DNA of 62,911 nt, counting the filler, from Basidioascus undulatus (Eukaryota), in NCBI GenBank assembly GCA_000826855.1. It is 5 parts of 5 records of this genome, joined end to end, with 100 filler letters (N's around TTAATTAATTAA, not from the genome) between each part and the next. Parts side by side here need not be neighbours in the genome. Positions count along the whole stretch, not along the records: positions 25,241 to 37,738 come from JTLS01000900.1; 4 more parts are not named here. One strand, written 5' to 3'. The notes under the pieces are model-generated. The model saw nothing but the letters and a program-made list of their open reading frames with translations. It had not been told where the DNA came from and made no database searches. The position numbers were made by a program, and so were the translations under genes. Of the stretch, positions 12,527-50,432 are shown piece after piece; position 1 is the stretch's first letter; the number at the start of each line of letters is the position of its first letter.

Positions 12527-12627
12527 GNNNNNNNNNNNNNNNNNNNNNNNNNNNNNNNNNNNNNNNNNNNNTTAATTAATTAANNNNNNNNNNNNNNNNN
12601 NNNNNNNNNNNNNNNNNNNNNNNNNNN

Positions 12628-25010: not shown

Positions 25011-25240
25011 CCGTGGGGGAGTCGTGCGTGTCTGGATGGGATAGAGTGGGGCGGTGGGGCGTCGGGTCAGTGGGTTGTTCGCGTACGGTTGGGGAGATTG
25101 GGGGCGGGGATGCGACAGGGAAAGGGGTGGGAGGACAGTTNNNNNNNNNNNNNNNNNNNNNNNNNNNNNNNNNNNNNNNNNNNNTTAATTAATTAANNNN
25201 NNNNNNNNNNNNNNNNNNNNNNNNNNNNNNNNNNNNNNNN

Positions 25241-26198
25241 CCCTCCCACCTCCCCAGCGCATCTCGCACTCCCCAAACACCTCCACGACCTTCCTCACCT
25301 CGAACCCGAGCTTCTCAAACAGGCGCTGGCTGGGCGTGTTGGAGAGCGCGATGCGTGCGATGAGCGCGCGCGGCTTCGGTTTGTGGAGGGAGGAGAGCGC
25401 GGGGGAGAGGAAGTAGTGGAGGAGGAGGGAGAGCGCGGTGTAAGCGTGGCCATGCCGGCGGTAGGCGGGCTCTGGGAGACCCGGGCGTTAGCGAAGATGG
25501 TGGGGATGGTAAGTGGCAAGGGAGGAGGAGAGGCGCACCAGCGATCATCACCTCGCACTCTGCTACAGGCTCGTCCGAGTCCGTGTCGTTCGAGAGGAAG
25601 ATGTTGACGTCGCCTATGGGGACGCCCCACTTCTCATCGGCGAGCGGGCAGGGTCCATCAGGGACCGGATGGCGGGCGAGAACGATGAACGTCAGTTCTG
25701 CGCAAGAGAAACAGATGAGTGTGGAAAGCGGGCAGAGGGAAAACGGAGGAAGAGGGATGGGGAGGAAGAGGGGCACAGACTATCTTCGTCGAGGTGCCAT
25801 TTGCCTGTGTGCGCGTGGGTGGTTGTAAGATGGAGGATGGATGTGGGAATAAATAGGTGTGGAACCAGAATGGGAAGGGGAAGGGGAAAGACGAACGCTG
25901 CATCTCGTACTCCTCCTTGAGCGTGAGCGGCTCGCTCGCCGTGAGCTCCTGCAGCTCGAGCGAGGCCATCCACTTGTGGTAACGCTCGATCTACTCGGAC
26001 CAAGCCAGACCTCAATGCATGCTCTTCTCATATATCAGGTCAGAAGGGCGCACATGCTTCTTTCTGCGGGCGGGCGAGGAGGGGTGAGTGTGGGCGTGTA
26101 AGCGCGAGAAACAAACAGAAGGGGAAGGGGCAGATGCACTTGTACGGGACGAGGTTGATGTCGCGCCCTATGAGGACGGTGTTCTCGTTTATGCGCAT
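25241..26198 (-). CDS. nat9: GNAT N-acetyltransferase 9-like; last codons run into gap
   Basis: MRINENTVLIG, LVPY, RYHKWM, LQELTASEPLTLKEEYEMQ, WHLDED|KLTFIVL, GDVNIFL, ECEVMIA|EPAYRR, SQRLFEKLGF. Confidence 0.9.
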
Positions 26199-26704
26199 TC
26201 GGAAGGGTTTCCTGAGGGCAGGAGGAGGAAACAAAAGAGGGCATAGGGACCGTCAGTGTGCGGATGTTGAGACGCGAGGGACGGGGCGGTGCGGGAGTGG
26301 GACCAATCGAAAGGTAAGTAACATGCTGCGAACAAACAGGATTGCGACTGTGCTTCCTTCCAGTAAAACCGTTGAGAGCGAGGGCTCCAAAGAGGCTGTG
26401 TGGGCGTTTGATACGGACGGGCCAGACGACGAGCAGGAGCGGTCGACTCGCTCGATCGAGGATTCGAGTATTGTTTTCCATAATGTCGCCAAACATGTAT
26501 AGACCATGTGCAGGAGCTGTATAGTACGAAAATCCAACAGAATGTACTCACAAGAAGGTGGTCAAGGAAGTCGCCTCGCGACAGCGGCAGGCAATAGCGT
26601 CGGCTTCAGAAACCTCGAAGTCCGAAAAGCCGCCCTTGCCCCTTCGCGTGCGCCTTCTCGCTTCGCTCTTGCCCCGCTCAGCTCGTCCTCTTCGCTCGCC
26701 CGAC

Positions 26705-27817
26705 ATGGCGCCCTCGACTTCCTCACTTGTTCCACTGGCGCGGGGGGCTCTGCAGGGTGCGCTGATATCTTTACTGGGAAATATTGGAACCGCGAAGGGC
26801 GTACTGACAGCTGGGGCTGGGCGGGTCTGGCAGCCTCCTCCCGGTCGTTCTCTTCCTCCGCTGCCCGGCGTGTGCTGGTCGAGTCTGCGTCTGCGCCTGA
26901 GGGTGTTGCGCGGACGGACAACAACCTCACGCTCGAGCAGCGTCTCTTGCAGCGTGGCATTGGTGCGTCGCTGGCCCTCAGCCCCCTTCCCTCCCCGCAC
27001 GCTGACCCTCCCGCTCCCCTCAGTGGACTCGCTCCAGAACCTGGGTTCGACTCAGCATCGGGCGTCGGCGACGACCTTCCGCCCGCACAAGACGCGCACG
27101 CCGCCGTCCAAAGACGCCCTCCTCTCCGCCCTCCTCGCGGCCGGCGCCCACCTCGGCCACGCCCACGCGGCCTGGCATCCCTCCACAAAGTCCTTCGTCC
27201 ACGGCATCCGCCACGGCCAGTCCATCATCGACCTCGAAGTCACCGTCTCCGCACTCCGCCGCGCCGCCAACGTCGTCCGCGCCGTCGTCGAGCGCGACGG
27301 CATCGTCCTCTTCGTTGGCGGAAAGACCCGCACCGAGACCACCCGCGCTGCCATCCGCCGCGCCGCCGAGGCCCTGGGCAGCAACGGCTTTGCTGTCCCC
27401 GAGCAGTGGCTCCCCGGCACGCTCACAAACGCCTCCGTCCTCCTCCCGCGCGTCTCCGCATCCGCAGCCCCCAAGGAGGGCGGCCGCCCCCCGCTCCCGG
27501 ACCTCGTAGTCCTCACCTCCCCGCTCGTGCACCCGCACGCCCTCCGCGAGTGCGCCCTCACCCACACCCCCACCATCGGCCTCGTCGACACCGACGCCGA
27601 CCCCCGCATCGTCACCTACCCCATCCCCGCCAACGACGAGAGCGAGCGCACCGCTGAGCTTGTGCTTGCGCTCCTGGGCGAGGCCGGCAAGCAGGGCCGC
27701 GAGGAGCGCATGCGCAAGAGGGAGCGGGCCGAAAAGATCGACCGCGCGCGCCGGGCAAGGGTCGAGGACAGGCGGCGGGCGCGGGGACAGGAGTCGGAGA
27801 CGGAGGAGGGGATGTAG
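26705..27817 (+). CDS. mrp4: Mitochondrial ribosomal protein uS2m (3 exons)
   Basis: Motifs: LLAAGAHLGH, IRHGQSIIDL, GIVLFVG, WLPGTLTN, PDLVV, PTIGLVDTDADPRIVTYPIPANDES. After removing the intron at 26757-26833 and a second intron, the N-terminus reads as a presequence (SSRSFSSSAARR). Confidence 0.92.
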   Translation: MAPSTSSLVPLARGALQGALISLLGNIGTAKGVLTAGAGRVWQPPPGRSLPPLPGVCWSSLRLRLRVLRGRTTTSRSSSVSCSVALVRRWPSAPFPPRTLTLPLPSVDSLQNLGSTQHRASATTFRPHKTRTPPSKDALLSALLAAGAHLGHAHAAWHPSTKSFVHGIRHGQSIIDLEVTVSALRRAANVVRAVVERDGIVLFVGGKTRTETTRAAIRRAAEALGSNGFAVPEQWLPGTLTNASVLLPRVSASAAPKEGGRPPLPDLVVLTSPLVHPHALRECALTHTPTIGLVDTDADPRIVTYPIPANDESERTAELVLALLGEAGKQGREERMRKRERAEKIDRARRARVEDRRRARGQESETEEGM

Positions 27818-29203
27818 TGGGCGGGATAGATGGACAGATTGCGAAGGCGTAAGCGGCTGCAGCCGTAAGTACGTGTTGGAGGGCGGTATGGCGGCGCTTT
27901 CAGTTCGCCCAGACTACCCTGCTCGCTCGCTCTCGCTTCCTTCGATCGCTCGCGCTTGCTCGCGGATCTCATCTACTCATGGCCTTTCGATCTTCCCTGC
28001 GCGACTAGTCTAATCTCTCGCTGCCTCTTCCCTGACCACCGCATAAAATCCTGTCACTTTTTCGCTTGCTGACAGACAGCCCTCACGACATTCACTTCCT
28101 CTCCCTCCCGTCGAGCTTTCTTCTCCCTCGCCAGCATGCCGCACTTTAATGCGCAATGCTGCAGCTTACCCGTCGTTCGTCAATTACCTGCCGCGCGATA
28201 ACACCCCGCTTCCATCACCTTCGTTCTGCCCGCACGTCGCATCTCATTCCACCGCATTTTTCTATTCGCGTCCTGGCGCGACTTAATGAAACAGTATGCC
28301 ATGATCCATTCACGCTTCGGCAGCTACCTGCTGTCTCTTCTCGCGCGGGCGGGAGTCGAGCCCTCGCTTTCTCCGGCTGTGTCCTCCACGCGCAAGCGGA
28401 TTGCGCACCTCGCACCCCCAGAGCACATGTGCTGAATCTTCAGACTGCGGCTCACTATTCTCTTGCCCACTGCCCAATTCGAAGGTAGTAGATCTGTCGC
28501 TGTGTTCTCCATTCAATGGGAAGCGTCGCGTTGATTCAATTTGCCGATGGGGATGTCTGCGGCTGCCTATGGGAGGGCAGTCTCAACCGGCACAGTCGAG
28601 GACCAGTTGTTGGAGCTTTCGTGTAGAAAAAGCTCGTTCGAGTTTTTTACTGATGTAACATACGGAACAGACCCGTTTGGACCATTCAGAACTTCCTGGT
28701 TTTGGCAGTGGTCTGTCGATTGCTTCCTGGCAGCGGGCTGCCTACCGGCGAACTTGGACGAACACCCTCCGGCCAGCATCCGATCGCAGGGGTTCTAGCG
28801 CATCATGTCCTGGGGAATCAAGATGATCACCATCGTCTTCCAGCTGTATCCGGACAACTTGCGCCTGTGCCGGTGCCAGCCGAGCATCGCCAACAGGCAC
28901 ATCAGCGAGCACGGTCCTTCCGCTTGTGATTTCTGGGAAGGACCGCCGGCCGCTGATGCGGCTCAGCTCCTGCACCCCGCACAACAACCATCGGCGTACC
29001 TTCTCGTTGAGAGATTATCCCTCGAGTTGACGTTGAATAAGTGTCTCTCGTTGCGGGGTAAGCCGGGCTGCCCGAAGGCAACGAGTGAGGATAAGAAGGA
29101 GCGCCTTCCTCTCGACTGCTGCTGTTTCTTCCCTCACACACGCATCTCATCCCGCACATCGCTCCCACACCCCTCTATATTGTCATTTATTCGTGCTCTC
29201 GAC

Positions 29204-30694
29204 ATGCCCGCCCCCAAGCGTTCCACCCAGTCCACCCGCGCGACAAAGCGTGACCAGCCTGCCGCCCACGTCGTCCCCGCTTCCACTGCGTCCGCTCCGC
29301 TTCGTGTCGGACCACCTAAGGCTAAGCGCGGGCGTCCTCCCAAGGTAAGCCTTCCTTATTTCATTCTAATGCCTCAAGCTATCCACTGGGGCTTACACTT
29401 TTGGGCGGGCACAGAATCCTCAGGACGCTGTCGAGCCGCGCGCGGCGGATTCGGCGACTGCACCGCCCAAGGGCCGGCGCGGGCGTCCTTGTAAGGTTTC
29501 GCGTAAGGTGAGTATATATTTCGGATTTTTCTGTGGCTACTTTTGGCAGACTGTCTCTAAGGGGGTGGTGCTGGTGCATACAGAAGGCCGCGCCCGTCGC
29601 TGTCGAGCCGCCCGCTTCGGAACCGGAGGAGGAAGGGGACGAGGAGGTGCAGGTGATAGACATAGAGTCCGATGAAGACGAGCGGGACGGCGAGGAGGTT
29701 CTGAGCTCGGGGGACGAGTTTGAGCCCCCCCAGGATGAGGTGGAAGAGGAGGACGAATCGGATTTGTCTGGGGAGGAGGAGGAGGCACCTGCGCCTCGGT
29801 CGGCGCTGCCTCTTCCACCGCCGCCCGCAGTGCAGGTCATCACCGGCAAGCCGCACATTTATGGTGAGTGATCCCGAGTTATACTTTCCACGTAATTTTT
29901 TGTTCTTCTGTATTTGTAGTGCTGACGCTATTTGGATTTTGACAGGCTCCCCAGCTGCCATGGTTAACAAGGGCAAGGGCAAGGGTAAGGCGCCGGCTTG
30001 TACGTAGACTTTCTTACTTTTATTCTTATGATAACCTGATTATACACTTCTTACACAATCACCTTCATTATCACAGCACCGCCGCCCGTTCTTTCGTATG
30101 AAAAGCCACCCGTGCCCAACTACCGTGCAAACGTCGCGCCCGCCTTTTCCTGCACTCCCCCGAATGTCAAGCGGAGCATCTTCGGTGCGTACGACGCCCT
30201 TCCATTTCCCTTTACTTTCCGAAGGATTAGACCAGCGAGTAAAATTACAACTTTGACTTGCAGCGCAACCGACTCCGCGACACGACCCGGGCGTCGGCTC
30301 GTCGAAGCTCCCGCCGTCGACCAAGGCTAAGCGCTCGGCAGGTAAATTCCATTAAATTCTTCCAATCCTTCCTTTATGAAAAGCTTCTGAGCGCTACGAC
30401 TGCAACTGTAGCCGCCTTGGCAGACGAAGCCCCGGCACCTACCACGCCTCAGCAGGCCAAGCGCGTCCGGTTCAACAGCGACAGGGTGCGTTTCGAACCG
30501 CTCCCATCTCCTAACGTCACATGCTCCAACCTGACTATTCGTCTTCATTTTAATTTCAGACGCTGACCCCTAGCCAGCGCAAGCATCTGCAAGCGCAGCG
30601 AGACACCCAGATCCGGCGCGTCGAGGAGCTGGAAAACGAACTCGTGCTCGCGAAGAGTTTCCTTGATGGGCTCGAGAGTACACTAGATCAATAG
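29204..30694 (+). CDS. AT-hook / acidic low-complexity protein with C-terminal coiled coil, ~8 exons
   Basis: KRGRPPK and RRGRPCK AT-hook-like motifs, a long D/E tract, and last exon QIRRVEELENELVLAKSFLDGLESTLDQ*. Canonical GT..AG introns. Confidence 0.65.
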
Positions 30695-32299
30695 GGGTGC
30701 ATGTACGAAGGTCATTGGTGGCAGAAAATTCAGCGCGATTTATGGACTTGTTAGGAAGGCGATAGAGTGAAAGCTCCGTGTGGCCGGCATGGGCTCTCAA
30801 CGTGGGTCGACCACTATCTCGGAAAAAGTCAGCCACCGCGCGGTATAGCAACAGATTAAATTAATTGCCTAAAACGCAAGTTGTGATTCCATCACTCATC
30901 AAAACAGATCCCAGTCCACCGCCATCCGGTCCTTGCTCCCTTCGTCACATTTCAGTCCCCCGGTCTTTGCATCACCCAGCACTTTAGTACCACTTCCTAA
31001 CCATCTCGAGCAGGTCCAGAAATCCTCCAAAGCGCTTAACCCAACCCCTCGACCAGCTCCTGCCGGTCATAAGCGCGTAAGACGCATCGGATCCTTCGTA
31101 GGTCAGGCTGTCAAGAGCCGCTTGACTGACACCTGTCATGCATAGCGTCTTTGCGGGGGAGAGCGGAGCGTTGGGAAGAGCCTCGAACAGGTTCTCGGAG
31201 ATGTGAATATGCTCAAGAGGGGTGTGGGTTCCCTCCCTTGTCCCAAGAGAGGGTTCTGGGGTGCGGTAATCTGACGCTTTGGTGTCAGAAAATATTAGAC
31301 CGATATGAAGGCCGAAAGGCTCTTTCTATTGCTTCCGCAGCTGACTGCAAGGCAGCTGACTGCGAGTCTGCTTGGCTTCGCACGTTTGTATCTTGCTCTT
31401 TGCTTGCTTCCAAACATAAAGTGAGGCATCATAAACTTCATAAATCAATATGAAGTGCCAGGGTAACTTAGGGAGTGAGTGGCAGGTACTCGCAGGGTGG
31501 CGCTGGCGGCTCGCAGCGAAGAGGGGGACCGGGGAGGGGAGGACACGGTATGAGGGGGAGATGGGAATAACCCAGCTTATGGATATGCTTAAAATATATA
31601 CTCTTCCTGTGCTCTATGTGGTGGCCAAGTTTGAAATGAAGAGGACATCGCTGTGTGGCGGCCTTATGCCAGCCATAAGATGTGGCTGTCTTGCTGTCGG
31701 AGCGGATCAGTCGGCGTAAACGAAAAGCAGTGCGTTATCCGGCAGGCCGCTCGTGCGAAGATGAAGGGCTAGCGCGCGAAGGGGTCCAAGGAAGTGTCGC
31801 AAGAAGCGATGAACACGTTCTCGCCCCGAGAACATACTTTTAGTTCGAGGGATCGAAAGCCGGCTAAAAGGAATCCGTCGCGCTTGCGCTCGTTCAGGGT
31901 AAGTTAACGGAGGTTGGGAAACACCCGCGGGCTGATGGCGCTAGAAGCAATCCAGGACAGTTGCAATGATAGCGACGACTCCGATGACGGTGAAGAAGGG
32001 CATGATGATAGGAAGAAGTGTTACCCCAATGCAGTAGAACCAAAGTTTCTCACGTCCTGTGAAACAGTCCGTCTATCGGACGACGCGGGGCTTGAGATGG
32101 TGGCATCGCTGCTTCTGTGGGAGTGAACGTGGAGGATGCCAGGCTGCGGTCTTCCGCTCGCTAGGGTATCAGCTTTCGCCTGGGCATATCATGAGATGGG
32201 AAGTTTTCAGAGCTCATAGCAATGTTGGGGGGCATTAATACCGGCTTTAATATCGAAACTAAAATGTACGGGTGGAGTACTCGGAGGAGCAACAGCGTC

Positions 32300-34989
32300 G
32301 TCGTCAGCGGAAGGCTTCCTCCATAGCGTTGCCCTTTTCGCGGAGCGACTTTCCCACACAAGGGCAGAACACCAATGTGATCCGTGCGTTACATGATGCA
32401 TGTCCTGCCTCCCTACGCCCACCACGGCTCAGGCCCCTCCCCACCGCCTTGCGGACCTGGGCACCTTCCGCGGAAGTGCAGCCCAATGGACGCATGGTAC
32501 TTGGTCCTTTAAAATTGGCAATGAGCAGTCAGACTCACGTTACCCTTTTTGGAAAGGAATGACGAACTCGTAAGGGCAGAAGGGGCAAGCCTGCCTTCCC
32601 CCGTTCCTCCATGCCCGCATCGCTTGCGCAAATCCGGTGTGGAACGGGCTGGCGCTGCGGAGAGTCGGGTGAGGCATTAGCCACAAAGCTAGCAGATAAA
32701 ATGGAGCACTACGTACAGATGTTTCTGCATTTGTGAGGGGTTACGGCGACGTTCCCGCTCCTTCCGCCCGCAAGTCGGGTCGACCGCGCAGTGCGGACAA
32801 ACCGAGCGGGTCATACCGGTCGGCAGATTAGCCAGGAACCTGCAACGCAATGTTCTTAAGCACCAATGCAAAAATCCGGTACGTCGTACTTCCAAGCAGA
32901 TGGAGAAGACTTACCGCATGAGTGCAAGTCGCGCACAGGGAAGAGGAATCGGAAGCTCGTCGTCTTTGGTCCAAGGCTCAGGGACGGTGAGGCAGCCTGT
33001 TTTGAGGGTAGGTAAGAATTTCTAAAAAATGTGGTAGTTCAGGCATTCTTACGGACCTTGAAAGCTCTCTCGCCTGTCCCAGGACAGCGCTGCGTCCAGC
33101 ACGACGCTCGGCCGTTCCAGTTGCAACGCGCGTTCAGCACGCAGCGGCAAGCGAACCGGCGCCTCGGGAGGCGGTCCAGCTTTGAAGAGCTTGGGGAACA
33201 TCTTCGACAGCTTCGTCTGCACGGCGTGGGTCTGTACGTCGGGCGGTGTCGTCTCGTCCGCCAGCGCCGGCGCGCTGTCGCTGTACCGCGATTGCGGCTC
33301 GCGGGGGTCGCCTATGCCGGCGAAGAGCGCCGTCGTGTTGTAGTTTTTCGCTTGATTCGTGTAGTGACGGGTCTGAATGTTTAAGTACGTCACTATATAG
33401 CATTCAGGTAGATGCCAAACCGCAGGAAAGCACCGATGTCAGAGGAGAAGTGTGACCTCCGAAGGCCTGCGCGAGCTGGTCGCCGCCATGCTGGGCAGCC
33501 CGATCGAGGAGGTGGCGCCGGAAAGACGTCGGACAGACCCCTGCGAAACCGGTTCAAGTCAACCAAGAATCTGCATTTCCCGGTCACAGTTGGACTTACC
33601 AAACATAGACACTGCCTCCGCGAGCTTCCTGACTATGAAGGACAGGTTTGCGGCGTTGCGGGGCACCCACCCCTGCTTGAGCCCGTACCCGTTTGAGGTG
33701 ACCTGCGTGAGGAGAGGAAGACAACGGAAGGTAGGTTTTATTAGCTCGTGCACATCCTCGGTCTCGTCCGCAAGCAGGTCATCGAGGGTCTTGTGGGGGA
33801 AAGCGCCTAGGAGGAAGAGGAAAGTGACGATATGCACGCCGAGGTCGTGGATGAGGCCGGCATGATGAGACGCCGGCTCGGCGGTGAACGCGATGCTAGA
33901 ATAAATCCATTTCAGCAACAAGAGTGCGAACCATGCACAAATTCACGTACGGACGAGAATGGATACCGTTACCACCTTTCGTGTGCCGATGCTCAACCTT
34001 GACGGTGTAACCAGGACAGACGGGGTCGGGCCGGCGATAGATTTGCAGATCCTGGAGGGCTGTATAGGCGATGGTAACGAAACAGACTATGTCAAATCTC
34101 ACCTCGAACTTGAGGTACCGCTCCTCCAAGATCCATTCCACGTACGCCGGCCCGATGGAACCGGGACGCGGCGATTGGCAGAGCAGACAGAGAAGGACGA
34201 GATCTTGAAGCGTCTGTTCACAAAGGCAATATATTAAGCAACAGCTCGGTGCGGCAACACAGAGCTCAATTGAACTAACCGGGATTGCGCTGTTGTGCTT
34301 GACAATCTGTTGCTCGTACAGCAACTTGTACTCGAAAGGTCCTGCCGGAGGTACCTGATCCTTTTCAGTAATAAGGGAATATTTGCTGACAATATAATTT
34401 TGCCACTGTGAGGGTAAATATCAGTTACCATGGAGCGTAGCCAAAACTGATACTGGGAACACAGACTTACTGTGCGGAAGTCGGGACGCAGTTGATTAAC
34501 ATCGACCCGGGACAGGCCGTAATGCACACTTAGCTGCCAGAACATCAAGAACACTGGTCAGCAAAGTTACACGCCGTACACAGAGCGAGGATACCTACCA
34601 TCGTGAGAAAACCGTCCGTCCAAGCGCTCGGAGTGCCGCTCTTGAAAATGTGCCCCTTGGCTTCCATACGTTCCCGGAGCCTCATCTCGAGGAACGTTTC
34701 GCCAAGCACTGCCAACCATTAGACCTGCGGACTGAAAAGAATGAACCGAGAAAGACGACGACGCACAGCTGAGCTCTGCCCTACCCCACCCAGGCTGCGG
34801 CTGATGACCTGCATTAAACTGCTCGATATAGACCTTGAAGTCTGCATGTATCGCGTTCATCTGTGCCTTCTGTCTCGGCCTAAGGTGAGCAGTGCGCCGG
34901 TCAGGCTCCGTACCGGTAGCGAGTTTTGTCGCCGCAAGCCGGGCTGCTTGGGTGCGGCGCTCATCCCTTATGGAATTGTAGTGGGGCAT
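32300..34989 (-). CDS. Tyrosine recombinase, DUF3435 (Starship captain)/Crypton-like, about 10+ exons; 3' end approximate
   Basis: Manual splicing gives a continuous frame with catalytic-order motifs: SPRPGSIG...YLKFE|DLQIY (R ~34167), HTKGG (K ~33978), TSFRRH (~33520), AQAFGGH (~33453), TRHY (Y 33361-33363). These are followed by a CPHC...KHLASPFH zinc-finger-like segment. Confidence 0.75.
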
Positions 34990-36002
34990 TGATATTGTAG
35001 GTGATAAGGAATAGTTTGAAGTGGGAGGGTTTGGGTGTTTGTCTGGGAGGGGGTGTGTAGAGGGCGCAGGAAGCCCGGGGCGATGCAGCGTAGGACAGCA
35101 ACGTCAAAGGAGAAGAGAAGACGCACTCGCAGGTGCGCGCGCTTTTCAGCGCTCCTCTCAGATTGAAAAACGCGCTGCGCGCTTCTTACTTAGGAGCACG
35201 AGCGGTGGACGTTCAGTAGATGTTGATGGGACGGGCAAGGGGGGTGATGAGCGTGAAGTGCACCGAGGGTCAGCATGGGGAAGCCGGCCTGTGCGGGACA
35301 GCGCAAGGGCCGTCCGCACATGCCCAACACTCGCCCATAGCCCCTTGCTATGGACACAACGAAATAGGTTGAGATAGGTCTCTTGTTTTATGGAAGCTCG
35401 CTTCTACGAGGCTTGTATCTGCGGCAGGTATACAGACCTGCTGCCGCTCTGCTGTCAAGCAACGCGCTGCGTCGATCACGGTGTGCCCTGTGCCCTCGCG
35501 ATTCCCTTTCCACTTTCTTGACTAACTCGGGTAACTAGACCGTAAGTGATTCTAGGTCTTGGTTGTCCAAATCATAATTGACGTCTCGCTATACTGGGCA
35601 ATTGCTCTTGGAATCGGGGACGACCAGCAGCTCGCTCGACGAGCGTAATATTCCGCTCTCACTTGCTCTCGCACAAATCTCGCCTGCCGGCCTTGAACAG
35701 GCTTTCTCTTTTCCAGAAACTTCCAGAATGAGCAGGGCATTATTTGGCGGCATTTCCAAAGAGAAGTGTCAGATTGTTCTGTGACTCAGCAGCATTGTTG
35801 GAAGCTGGGACGGCCTCAGCCGCCGCGCTCGAGACCCTCCCTGCGCCGATGTTGCATTGTTGTGCTTCAGCAGATCGTAGACCGGTCGAAGTCACGTTGA
35901 AAATCCGCATACGTCCATGTAAGAAACGAAATCCGAAATTCATTAACATCCGTCCGCATTCCCTCGAAATCGTGCCCGGACATCGCGTCCGTGCCCCCGG
36001 CC

Positions 36003-37000
36003 TCACAGCAACCAAGGCACGACCGCCCTCCGCTCGCGCGGGTACTCCTCGCCAAACTTGGTCCTGTACCACATGTGCCCGCGCACAGCGCGGGGCGACA
36101 TCGTCCCCAAGAGCGCGAGCCAGAAGAGCCAGGGCGGGGCGCGTGCGTCGAAGTGCCGCGTCGCTGCGAGCGCGTAGCCGAGCCATTCGATCCATTCGCT
36201 GGAAGGGGTGCCGGCCCGGGTAAGGCGGGAGGTGGGAGGCGGGAGGCGTGAGGCGGGATACGGGAAGGAGAGGGTACGCACCAGAAGTAGTTAGGATACG
36301 AAATGAACCTGTACAGCCCCCCATGGGGGATCTCATACCGGTTCTTCTCCCCCTTCTGCTCCCCCGTCCCTCTCCGCAGCCTCAGCAGCACCTCGTCATG
36401 CCACCAGTTCCCCATGAACCCGACCGCCCATATCCCCACGCCCACCCAGAACCTCGCCGAACCCCACTCCGCCGTCTGCGCACCGGGCACGCGCCCGCCG
36501 ATCCACGCGCCCATCAGGAGCCCATTCAAGAGGTTGAAGGCCACCGCGCACGCGACGACGAGTAGATGGCTCGGCGAGCGGCACGGCGTGCGGAGGGGCG
36601 AGATGATGGCGCGGTTGATGTAGTGCGTGAGGTAAAGGCCCGCCAGGAGCTTGGACGTGGCGGGAAGGTGCGAGAGACGGGCAAGGGAGGGGAAGAGGAG
36701 CGAGGTTGAGGAGGTGAGAGGCGGCGAGAGGAGCGAGAGCGCGAAGATCAGAGGCGAGGGGAGCTCCATGAAAATCCAGGCGTAGCGGCCTGCTCAGAAC
36801 ACGTCAATGGTATTGGTCTCTGAACGGGAGAAGATGGGAATGCGCGCACCATCAAGAGCGAACTTGGAATCCGGCTTGGCGAACCGGCCGAAAGGGGCAT
36901 TGATGAAGAGGCTCGGGATAGAGAGGAGCGGGAACGTCTGGTAGACGGGTACAAGCGCCTCGTACACGTCTAGCGGCGTGGAGAACGAGAGGAGAGGCAT
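36003..37000 (-). CDS. 3-oxo-5-alpha-steroid 4-dehydrogenase (steroid 5-alpha-reductase family), 3 exons
   Basis: APFGRF, AWIFMELPS, HYINRAII, NWWHDEVLLRLR, YEIPHGGLYRFISYPNYF|CEWIEWLG, RAVRGHMWYRTKFGEEYPRERRAVVPWLL. Confidence 0.92.
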
Positions 37001-37931
37001 GATTGGCTTCGAGCACCGACTCCTGAGGGGGCAGGGAGAAGGATCAGCGTGTCGATTCAATTGTCAGTGGTATCGCGAGCTTGATCGACATGGCCGATTG
37101 ATCCCGCTGAGACGCAGAACGCGTGTATTGGTGGGTTTGAAAGGATTGGTAGTGAAATGCAGTCGTTCCCGAGACTCGAGAACCTAGTGAACTTCGATCT
37201 TCGCGCAGAGGGCCGTCGCCTGGGCTTCTTCGGAAGTTCGACTCACTGAGGCGCGGTCAAAGCGTGAGATTCTGACAGCGCGAGCGCTGTACGGACTTCG
37301 ATGACAAATAATGTAGCGAAGTAATTCCGTGAAAGAGCAAGTCGATCGAGGTGAGGAGCGAGAACAGGGGTGAGTGCAGGAAGACAAGGAAGGTGAGCTG
37401 ATCTTCTGGAAGACGCCTCCTCAGTGATGTCACCATCCTCGTTCCCCTGCGACCACTGAGCTGAAACAGCAAGGGGTTTTGCACGCACGCATCTGTCGAA
37501 TGTCTATACGAGCCAGAGCACAAGCGAAGGATCGAAGGGAACGAGGAGTCGCGCCTTGCTCAGATCCGAATGTCATCCAAGAGCCTGCACACGGCATACA
37601 ATCGTGGAAGAGCGCCCATTCCTCCCGTCCTATTCACGTGCATGTATTGTAACCCCCTCCCACCTGGCGCTCATTAAAGATAATGCGTGGAGCTTTGCTC
37701 CCATCATCGCATGGCGTGCAAAAAAAAAAAAAAAAAAANNNNNNNNNNNNNNNNNNNNNNNNNNNNNNNNNNNNNNNNNNNNTTAATTAATTAANNNNNN
37801 NNNNNNNNNNNNNNNNNNNNNNNNNNNNNNNNNNNNNNCCCCTCCCCCCCCCCTTCCTGCCTTTTACCCCCCTCCCCCTCATCCAGCCGCCACTGTGTCT
37901 GTTGCTGATGATATTGTTCCCTGCGACGAAG

Positions 37932-47118: not shown

Positions 47119-50100
47119 CTAAGAAGACCACTCTCCGCCGCTCGCGAGCGTGAAGAAGCTCCCCCGCGAAGCCATGAGCGACTCGTAGTCGCCCTGCTCG
47201 ACGATGCGCCCGTCCTGAACGACGATGATGCGGTCGCACATCTGCATGTCGGGCAGCTTGTGCGTGACGACGACCGTCGTGCGGCCCTCCTTGACCGCCA
47301 TCACCGTGTCCATTACCGCGCGCGCGTTCTCTGCGTCCAGCGCGCTCGTGCATTCGTCGAGAATGAGCATCCGAGCATCGCGCGCGAGCGCCCGCGCGAT
47401 CTGCAGGCGCTGCGCCTGCCCACCCGAGATGAGGGACGCGTTCTCGCCGAGGACGGTGTCGTAGCCGTTCGGCAGGCCGAGAATGAAGTCGTGCACGTTT
47501 GCGGCTTTGGCGGCGCGCACAATCTGGGCGTGCGGGAGCGGCGCAGAGGAGCCGTACGTGATGTTCTCCGTGACGGAGACGTCGAAGAGCGCCGAGTGCT
47601 GCGAGACGACGGCGATGTGGTTCCGTAGCCAGCGCACGTCCGTCTGACCGAGCGCGTACTGCGCCCCACTGCCGGAGTCGAGCAGGATCTCGCCCGAGCT
47701 CGGCTCGTACAGCCGCTGGAGAAGCGCGGCGATCGTGGACTTGCCCGAGCCCGAGCCGCCGACGACTGCGACACACTCGCCCTCGCGTAAGGAGAGCGAC
47801 ACGTCCTTGAGCACGGTCACGCCTGGCCGCGTCGGGTACGCGAAGGAGACGTTCGTGAAGTTCACTGCGCCAGTGATGGGGTAGCGGCGCGTGCCGTGCA
47901 ACTCGGAAGTCTCGGTCGGGAGTTGGAGAAGGCGCTTGACGTCCGTCGCGCCCTGGCATGCCTTGCTGATGGCGGGGACTGTGGAGCGCGAGGGGACTCA
48001 GTTAGGCGATGCGGTTGTAGCATGGTTTGGGAGACGTACTGGAAGCAAGAGCTTGGGAACCCATGGTAATCGAGAACATGACGATGCTGAAGACCTCGAG
48101 CATCTTGGGGTAGTTGAAGATGCCCTTAATGATGAACATCGCGCCAATGTAGAACATGAGAGCTGCAAAAGCACTATTGTCAGGCGAAGGATTCTTGGGA
48201 AGGAAAATGCAAGTCGGCAATTCAACGAACCTTGGGCGAGGTACACCAGCGTAGTGACCGCCCCGAAACCGATGCCGTAGATGGGCGCCGAGCGAACCCC
48301 GGTGCGACGAGCAGACTTGGCGCCCTGCTGGAACTTGTCGAGGAAGACACGCTCGAGGGCCATGGCGCGGATGCCGCGAATGTTGCTGACCATCTAAACG
48401 GGAACGGAGTCAGCCTTCGAACAAGCACAACCACGGAGAGGTAGGATGCCCGCCCACCTCGTAGAACGCCCGGGAAATCGCCTCGCGCTTGCGCTTGATG
48501 CGCCCCTCCCACTTGCCGACCGCAGCCGCCTGCGCGCCCATGACGACGAGGAAGACCGGCGCGAGAGCGATGCCGACGAGGGTGAGCTGCCAGCCAACGA
48601 CGAGGGCCCAGACGATGCCGAGGAGAATCATGGTGACGACGACGGTGAGCGTGCCGATGCAGTGGCTGATGAGCAGGCGCGCGTCCTCCGAGTCCTTGAC
48701 GATGAGCTGCACGAGCGCCGCCGCGCCGTTCTCGCGCTCGTCGAACCACGCCTTGTCCTGTGCGAGCGCGAGGCGCGCCGCGCGCGTGCGCACGCGGATG
48801 ATCCACGCGTTCGCGACGAACTCGAGCAGCGCCTGCTGCGCGAAGGTGGAGAAGCCGCTGATGGCGGCGATGAGGAGGACGAGGAGCGAGTAGAACGTGA
48901 AGTCGGATGCGGTGGATGTGGGGGACGCGAGGAGGCTGAGGACCTTAGAGAAAAAGTAGGAGAAGACGGGCGTCGTCGCGCCGTGGACGAGCGCGGTGAG
49001 GATGCCGAGGAAGAAGACGGGCTTGTACGGGATGTCACGCCAGTTGTTGCGCAGCACCTGCACGGCCGAGTCGCACCTGCGCGCATCCGCCGCGGCGTAC
49101 TCGTTCGGACCCGCGGCACCGCCATCCTTCTCGTCATCCCGCTGGACCTTGACGTCCTCGAGCTCAGCGGGGAGCCACTTCCTCCGCGTGGTCAACCCGA
49201 GCCGGCGCTGCGCCAGAACCGCGTCTCCCGCCTTCTCGAGCACGAGGCGCTCCTCGGACTCGCTCGGCCCGACCGGTAGCGGAGGCCGTGCGCTCAAGCG
49301 GCGGCTCTGTCGGGAGGGGAAGCCGCCGAAGGACTGGCGGGTCGGGCTCGGGCTGTCGGGCTGCGCGCCGAGGAAGGACGTGTTGAGGACCTGCCATGCG
49401 GACTGCCGGCGGAGGTACGACGGCTTGGTTCTGCCGCTGGGGACGGGCAAGCCTTGGAGGCTTTGGCGATGGTACGACGTGAGGATGTCCAAGTAGCTCG
49501 AGATGGGGCGAGTGGGCGAGGGGCTCGGCGGCTCGAGCTGCTGGATCATCATCGGCTCGGCGTCATAGTAGAGGACCTCCTGCATCTCGAGCTCGCCGTC
49601 GTGCTTGGGCGCGGCGACGTTGTTGACGTAGATCGCGGGCGCCGCGCGGCGGGCGTTGGCGTTCACCAGCGCACGGAACTCGCCTGCCGGGTTCAGCTCG
49701 AGGTCGGCGCGGAAGCCTTGGTCGACGACCTGGCCGTGCTTCATGTGGTAGACGAAGTCGTCCGCGGAGACTTGGGCGACGTCGTGCGTGATCACGATCG
49801 TCGTCTTGTTCTTTCGCCACGTTTTGACGGCCTCGTGAATGAGCAGACGCGAGGTTGCGTCGAGCGCAGAGGTCGCTTCGTCTGTTGAACGCGAACGAAG
49901 AATAGATGTCCGAAGTCAGAAAACATACACGGCAAGCTTTACGGAAGAGAGATGGGAAAGGAAGCGTGCGTACCGAGAATAAGGACGTCAGGATCCCGCA
50001 GCCTCGCGCGAGCGATCGCCAGACGCTGCTTCTGGCCACCGCTGAGGTCGGCGCCGCCGTTGCCAAGGATAGTCTCGTACCCGTCCGGCAAGTCGCGCAC

Positions 50101-50332: not shown

Positions 50333-50432
50333 NNNNNNNNNNNNNNNNNNNNNNNNNNNNNNNNNNNNNNNNNNNNTTAATTAATTAANNNNNNNNNNNN
50401 NNNNNNNNNNNNNNNNNNNNNNNNNNNNNNNN

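Follow-up and report, generated by a model that had tools for sequence, protein, structure and literature searches.

The minus-strand locus at 32413..34989 of the window (the whole stretch of 62,911 nt from Basidioascus undulatus that was analysed) is a real, intron-rich basidiomycete gene, and it probably encodes a very divergent tyrosine recombinase (YR) of the Crypton/DUF3435 (Starship-captain-like) group. That it belongs to the YR superfamily, broadly defined, appears somewhat more secure than this narrower assignment. The window is composed of five pieces of about 12.5 kb each, joined by linkers of the form N44-TTAATTAATTAA-N44 (12528-12627, 25141-25240, 37739-37838 and 50333-50432). Synteny across the linker points is artificial, and the 'inverted repeats' I1-I3 and the direct-repeat family D1 of our repeat scan are these linkers. 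The recombinase gene lies in the piece 25241-37738, and its genuine context is these 12.5 kb only.

The gene model was assembled from three minus-strand frames joined at GT..AG sites, giving 13 exons and 12 predicted introns with a coding sequence of 1845 nt (614 amino acids (aa) and the TAG; ATG at 34989, TAG at 32413-32415). Exons 1 to 4 (34989-34785, 34708-34599, 34533-34471 and 34405-34280) precede those in which the YR motifs are read. Exon 5 (34213-34103) contains SPRPGSIG with the candidate box I arginine R184 (codon 34168-34166), and exon 6 (34051-33951) contains HTKGG with the candidate catalytic lysine K230 (codon 33979-33977), both read from the translation. Exon 7 (33895-33600; residues 240-338) has no catalytic motif and covers the region between the lysine and box II, the first half of which, T342-S-F-R345 together with GGH367, is found in exon 8 (33540-33434). 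TRHY with the candidate nucleophile Y377 (codon 33363-33361), followed by a low-complexity linker, occupies exon 9 (33372-33057), and exons 10 to 13 (32996-32915, 32839-32717, 32654-32544 and 32506-32413) complete the model.

Most of what a previous sequence-only reading had described is recovered in this model. The fragments do join at canonical GT..AG sites into one frame, and the translation of the joined exons has the R, K, SFRR, GGH and Y motifs in the order it gave, on the minus strand, followed by the C2H2-like motifs it mentioned, here seen as two CxxC...Hx5H units. The SFRR/GGH exon is missing from the open reading frame (ORF) track, as it had pointed out, being a 49-aa open frame (33404-33553) below the ordinary size of ORF lists. 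The 3' end that it placed at 32300 has to be moved, since our model ends at 32413 and the earlier position fits another frame that stops at 32304.

Eleven of the introns measure 51-76 nt, while the last one (32543-32507) has 37 nt and is doubtful; the only argument for it is that a second finger then arises with the CPxC...H-x5-H pattern of the first. Intron 8 (33433-33373, 61 nt) has a weak donor, GTGCTT, and brings GGH next to TRHY. Between exons 8 and 9 there is one frame-compatible alternative, an intron of 64 nt (33456-33393) that would remove GGH and with which the match to the YR profile described below drops from E 2.4e-4 to 0.0063. The first zinc-finger-like unit (32639..32799; C520-x2-C523-x22-H546-x5-H552) extends across intron 11, and the second (32476..32587; C570-x2-C573-x14-H588-x5-H594) requires removal of the 37-nt intron. 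Exon 11 gives a sub-threshold match to the Pfam family Zn_ribbon_FGT1_2 (E 2.8e-4, 20.8 bits vs a cut-off of 27) and the second unit no Pfam match; on their residue pattern, both units are candidates for zinc binding.

The fact that such a chain of fragments can be spliced is by itself no evidence for a gene. A dynamic programme for stop-free reading with GT..AG introns of 45-80 nt needed 9 introns for the real strand (475 nt in all) and as many for the opposite one (525-539 nt), and 48 of 60 dinucleotide shuffles were readable, the median being 12 introns and 680 nt, compared with 12 introns and 732 nt in our model. Since the opposite strand and the shuffles splice equally well, we rejected the argument that ORF fragments which splice together make a gene. 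Three properties that were not used in building the model do exceed chance. Exons have a GC content of 0.60 (0.69 at third and 47% at second codon positions) and introns of 0.46, a contrast reached in only 5 of 2576 cases when the intron mask was shifted circularly. The phase of the model is the one with the best codon score in 10 of the 13 exons (binomial P 0.0016), as judged with a table of 845 Pfam-supported codons from elsewhere in the window. Moreover, the donors follow GTRNGT in 6 of 12 cases, compared with 6.5% among the 154 GT sites as a whole (P 4.9e-5), and the acceptors YAG in 11 of 12, against a background of 45% (P 0.0011). The GC contrast, the codon phase and the consensus at both splice sites hence support the locus as a real spliced gene with predicted introns.

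The similarity to tyrosine recombinases comes from two profiles. The XerD profile was built from 78 sequences, E. coli XerD and 77 of 80 orthologue loci (the other three were omitted for stops or ambiguous residues), and the diverse YR profile from 49, comprising 37 PF00589 matches from ten genomes, Cre, lambda Int and 10 XerD sequences. Cre and lambda Int are represented by single reference proteins only, as their relatives on viral contigs are 99-100% identical and of no use for a profile. With hmmsearch the diverse profile matches the spliced protein at E 2.4e-4 and 6.4 bits (search space of 1) in two collinear domains, residues 95-133 on positions 7-45 and residues 325-388 on positions 229-293 of the hidden Markov model. 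This score was reached by 2 of 5000 global shuffles, by none of 5000 block shuffles and by none of the 864 six-frame ORFs of the window, the highest of which scored 4.4. The two regions were also aligned by hhalign, both with the diverse profile (P 0.0043 and 0.031) and with the XerD profile, in which residues 326-382 correspond to XerD 226-284 (box II, P 0.029) and residues 97-134 to XerD 6-43 (the first core-binding helices, P 0.068). The top score with the XerD profile, 23.8, was reached by 4 of 125 shuffles, and the collinear sum of 45.0 by none of them.

The N-terminal match corresponds to the first helices of a core-binding (SAM-like) domain (34385..34631; residues 95-133 in exons 2-4) and becomes contiguous only once two introns are removed. 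It is weak alone (P 0.031 with hhalign and i-E 0.012 with hmmsearch, diverse profile), but collinear with box II. At box II, hmmalign places H244/R247/H270/Y279 of XerD, H289/R292/W315/Y324 of Cre and H308/R311/H333/Y342 of lambda Int on T342/R345/H367/Y377, with spacings in our protein of 22 residues from R345 to H367 and 10 from H367 to Y377, and with T instead of H/Y at the first position. The general YR pattern is (H/Y)xxR, with H/W some 22 residues on and the nucleophile Tyr 9-10 residues beyond it. The predicted protein thus has a supported, significant and collinear similarity to YR profiles with its box II catalytic residues aligned, as expected from the earlier proposal of a tyrosine recombinase.

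A more specific affiliation is suggested by exon 7. In a feature search of the ESM Atlas, its nearest clusters are DUF3435 (0.92, with 171/256 features, then 0.92 and 0.89), followed by DUF3504 (0.88) and NDC10_II (0.84), with a recognition of 2579. Scores near 0.9 occur for shuffled sequences too, yet the clusters retrieved are exactly the hypothesised family group, which is not expected of a chance match. According to the parts of PMC3212892 used here, DUF3435, DUF3504 and NDC10_II are all Crypton-type YR domains or derivatives of them. Both this lead and the core-binding match are independent of the motifs by which the locus was chosen. The DUF3435-like label given to the gene by the sequence-only reading is therefore kept as a lead from the exon-7 clusters and not as a profile match, as PF11917 was left unmatched by all nine exon pieces.

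A number of observations weigh against this assignment and have to be set beside it. The first position of the HxxR motif is T342 instead of H/Y. In the sections of PMC11162782 available to us, this residue is Y in captains of clades 1 and 3 such as HhpA (YxxR) and H in those of clade 2 such as Kirc (HxxR). No other published statement was found that bears on RPG...L.(Y/F).D and xxFRR, which the sequence-only reading had given as DUF3435 features. Both Y381A and Y381H of HhpA lose complementation, while the corresponding histidine of Cre is reported to be not strictly required (both in PMC10104507, as excerpted). Box I (R184 and K230; residues 166-250) is aligned by neither hmmsearch nor hhalign, and R184 and K230 are thus candidate catalytic residues, read from the motifs. 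With T342 as a variant and R184 and K230 unaligned, the active site of the predicted protein is not simply 'intact', and the intact catalytic set previously attributed to it is not supported. The junction of exons 8 and 9 was moreover selected with the motif known. The open frame of exon 8 (33407-33553) alone gives E 0.023, a score reached by 54 of 5000 shuffles, and ranks 22nd of the 864 window ORFs, 24 of which reach its score. Because the locus was noticed through its box II motifs, the P-value for that part is affected by selection; with about 68 gene-sized stretches per window, an arithmetic estimate of the corrected value is P ~0.016.

Homology searches likewise gave little for the assignment. 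Exons 5-6 (with the 51-nt intron retained) retrieved no family from the ESM Atlas (best 0.78, recognition 1050), and none of nine exon-level pieces matched a recombinase family in Pfam at E<=1, including PF11917 (membership threshold 25.8 bits) and PF00589. The Steroid_dh exons of a neighbouring gene match their own Pfam family at 1e-12 and 2e-11, which shows that exon-level scanning works in this genome and suggests that the protein is far from PF11917 and PF00589. Five pieces gave one irrelevant match in PHROGs (E 0.32) and none in NCBIfam. A phmmer search with exons 4-6 against 1.84 billion representatives returned no match, with low power because translated introns interrupt the query, and word-seeded searches with exon 7 found nothing in either the 'longer' or the 'near' setting. 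The metagenome scan matched 578 patterns, of which none was confirmed, and a PDB sequence search gave four weak and irrelevant matches. AF2 models reached a pLDDT of 55.1 for exon 7 alone and 35.8 for exons 4-6 read through, too poor for a fold search.

The genes around the locus inform both its host and its nature. Upstream is an intron-split gene for 3-oxo-5-alpha-steroid 4-dehydrogenase (Steroid_dh in Pfam; 36006-36793, minus strand), of which the frame 35870-36793 covers profile positions 3-92 and the frame 36006-36290 covers positions 93-149. Its last exon ends at 36003, 1013 bp upstream of the recombinase ATG, and an (AGGCGGG)5 microsatellite (36223-36258) was noted within its second frame. 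Downstream of the recombinase stop by 4.6 kb is a gene for a mitochondrial-type ribosomal protein S2 (26525-27814, plus strand; Pfam Ribosomal_S2, E 4e-48). The named matches of the S2 gene are almost all Basidiomycota, with 57% identity to Wallemia and 40-50% to Agaricomycetes. By this comparison the host is a basidiomycete, as previously stated, and the database searched contains no close relative of it, which partly explains the missing recombinase homologues.

Within this context the gene seems to stand alone. The repeat scan (20000-48000) found no flanking direct or inverted repeats besides the artificial linkers, and no tRNA, 5S, other Rfam family or relevant tandem repeat was found in the 12.5-kb piece. 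A tblastn search of the model against the window returned only the model itself, so that there is no second copy in 62.9 kb. No Pfam match to reverse transcriptase or RNase H was obtained from 70 of the 102 listed window ORFs of at least 140 aa, or from 86 of the 94 listed ORFs of at least 55 aa in the 12.5-kb piece. A YR retrotransposon of the DIRS/Ngaro type was accordingly excluded for want of such matches in the flanks. Our home-made YR profile also has weak matches (E 0.001-0.004 in a search space of 1) at 28150-28485 and 30243-30563 on the plus strand and at 30123-30326 on the minus strand. These ORFs involve different strands and different parts of the profile and look like noise among the 864, yet they are top scorers and lie in the same 12.5-kb piece as the gene.

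Four other explanations were weighed against the preferred one. The locus might be a domesticated, YR-derived host gene with a DNA-binding or regulatory role like Ndc10/Gcr1 or the DUF3504 genes, no longer a transposase, and we regard this as possible, though doubtful. A single copy in 62.9 kb, 12 host-sized introns, a position between Steroid_dh (1013 bp upstream) and the mitochondrial S2 gene (4.6 kb downstream) and no repeats within 20000-48000 save the linkers would all suit a resident host gene, as would T342 at a position where HhpA tolerates neither A nor H (PMC10104507, in part), and domestication of Crypton YRs is well documented in the consulted portion of PMC3212892. However, R345, H367 and Y377 are in register, unlike in the DUF3504 and Ndc10 proteins, which the same portion describes as having lost most of the catalytic tetrad, and no orthologue was found in the searches made. 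The sequence-only reading spoke of a 'Starship captain'-like type, and a Starship headed by this gene would have its cargo extending past the 12.5-kb piece. This is very improbable, despite the DUF3435 clusters nearest to exon 7, the enrichment of YR 'Family 11' in basidiomycetes (PMC11162782) and the eight Starships reported in Tremella fuciformis (PMC13066641), both as given in extracts of these papers. The element would need to span the mitochondrial S2 gene 4.6 kb downstream, no terminal inverted repeat (TIR), direct repeat (DR), tRNA or 5S target was found nearby, and PF11917 is unmatched on the exon pieces; the basidiomycete YRs in the excerpted part of PMC11162782 are likewise without identifiable element boundaries. 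With no cargo, boundaries or repeats seen in the 12.5-kb piece and housekeeping genes 1.0 kb and 4.6 kb away, we do not retain that designation.

It is also improbable that the gene, though real, encodes something other than a recombinase, its motifs and weak profile matches being due to chance. No curated family is matched, box I is unaligned, the locus was pre-selected for its motifs, and the YR profile weakly matches unrelated ORFs as well (E 0.001-0.002 at 30243-30563 and 28150-28485). Against this, the two-domain collinear match arises in at most 2 of 5000 shuffles, and the independent lead from exon 7 names the hypothesised family group among all Pfam families. Least credible of all is a spurious chain of short ORFs with no gene behind it. 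Random and opposite-strand sequence 'splices' equally well, but the GC contrast, the codon phase, the splice-site consensus and the ESM recognition of 2579 for exon 7 are all difficult to reconcile with it. We thus keep to a divergent YR of the Crypton/DUF3435 group. As a solitary gene among housekeeping genes within the 12.5 kb, it would be either a Crypton-like element of small size or a copy that is resident or domesticated, rather than the head of a visible Starship.

Comparison with known systems shows a mixture of shared and distinct features. With Starship captains the gene shares the DUF3435 clusters nearest to exon 7 and a box II in register, in which T342 to Y377 spans 35 residues, as does Y381 to Y416 in HhpA (PMC10104507, quoted sections). 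A zinc finger after the YR domain is documented for Kirc in the accessible part of PMC8092012, so that the C-terminal finger was correctly named beforehand as a captain feature. R184 and K230 lie about 20 residues further apart than is the case in XerD or Cre, and captain families are reported to have indels over a 19-residue Box 1 stretch (PMC11162782, in the passages used). Unlike captains, the gene has no PF11917 match on any exon, T and not H/Y before xxR, no chromodomain, 12 introns, housekeeping neighbours and no visible cargo, DRs or TIRs within the 12.5-kb piece; a large cargo-carrying element with DRs and the gene at its 5' end was not found in that piece.

CryptonF elements, first discovered in the basidiomycete Cryptococcus neoformans, resemble it in that they carry one YR gene and no reverse transcriptase, lack TIRs and occur in a fungal host belonging to this phylum. 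They are multicopy elements that end in direct repeats of 4-6 bp, and the window contains one copy of the gene. CryptonF proteins have a C-terminal GCR1_C domain, whereas here two CxxC...Hx5H units are found instead, and no Pfam match to GCR1_C was obtained on four C-terminal pieces. The DUF3504 genes and the NDC10_II domain of Ndc10/Cbf2 are among the exon-7 clusters (0.88 and 0.84), and the gene is similarly single-copy (in the 62.9-kb window) and host-like; these relatives have lost most of the catalytic tetrad, while our gene retains R345, H367 and Y377 (these comparisons draw on portions of PMC3212892). XerD, Cre and lambda Int share with it the collinear core-binding helices and box II, in which R, H/W and Y align exactly. 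In contrast to these bacterial and phage YRs, the gene is eukaryotic and intron-bearing, has C-terminal fingers and gives no PF00589 match on its exons, and its box I and the region from K to box II are unaligned.

By analogy with Cre/XerD and HhpA, the core-binding domain (about residues 95-133) and the two C-terminal CxxC...Hx5H fingers would hold the DNA, and the catalytic domain (about residues 170-390) would cleave one DNA strand, with Y377 becoming joined to it by a 3'-phosphotyrosine link. R345 and H367, probably with R184 and K230, would activate the phosphate, and paired cleavages would excise and reinsert a DNA segment. Any activity and mobility of the putative recombinase are extrapolated from these systems.

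As a probable captain- or Crypton-like YR, the gene is of a kind already known for the phylum: Kirc homologues are reported from 10 basidiomycete genomes in the excerpted text of PMC8092012. The earlier description of the gene as a basidiomycete relative hence stands as far as membership of the group is concerned, but its novelty is below what was implied, as both Starship-type YRs and Kirc homologues of basidiomycetes have been published. The gene stands out by how far it has diverged, by its TxxR site, by having 12 introns and by its two fingers. These might reflect a new family-level lineage of eukaryotic YRs in an undersampled, deep-branching basidiomycete group, outside PF11917 as drawn and near the Crypton/Starship split, an idea that we consider unlikely. 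If it were true, it would add a TxxR active-site variant, for which no tolerance is known among captains, together with twin CxxC...Hx5H fingers, and would bear on whether captain-like recombinases predate Pezizomycotina. The sections of PMC11162782 consulted leave it open whether Starship-type YRs originated in the Dikarya ancestor or arose in Pezizomycotina and were transferred afterwards. A very divergent relative that is rich in introns and whose nucleophile is apparently intact, from a basidiomycete lineage with no close relative in the database, would add a data point for the 'ancient' origin. The gene alone leaves the overall picture unchanged, because it was in a basidiomycete that Cryptons were discovered, and earlier reports from the phylum include captain-like YRs and indeed Starships. 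It does escape ORF lists, exon-level Pfam and sequence searches, and surveys may therefore undercount YRs in intron-rich fungi.

Two further observations concern other parts of the window. In the interval that separates the recombinase and S2 genes, open frames on the plus strand (28799-29871) that belong to no Pfam family contain KRGRPPK-like (AT-hook-like) units with internal direct repeats, D4 and D5, about 151-172 nt apart, and these units are followed by a very acidic stretch. In another piece, adjacent open frames on the minus strand (47122-49915) match ABC_membrane (E 1e-25) and ABC_tran (E 4e-31) and represent an ABC transporter.

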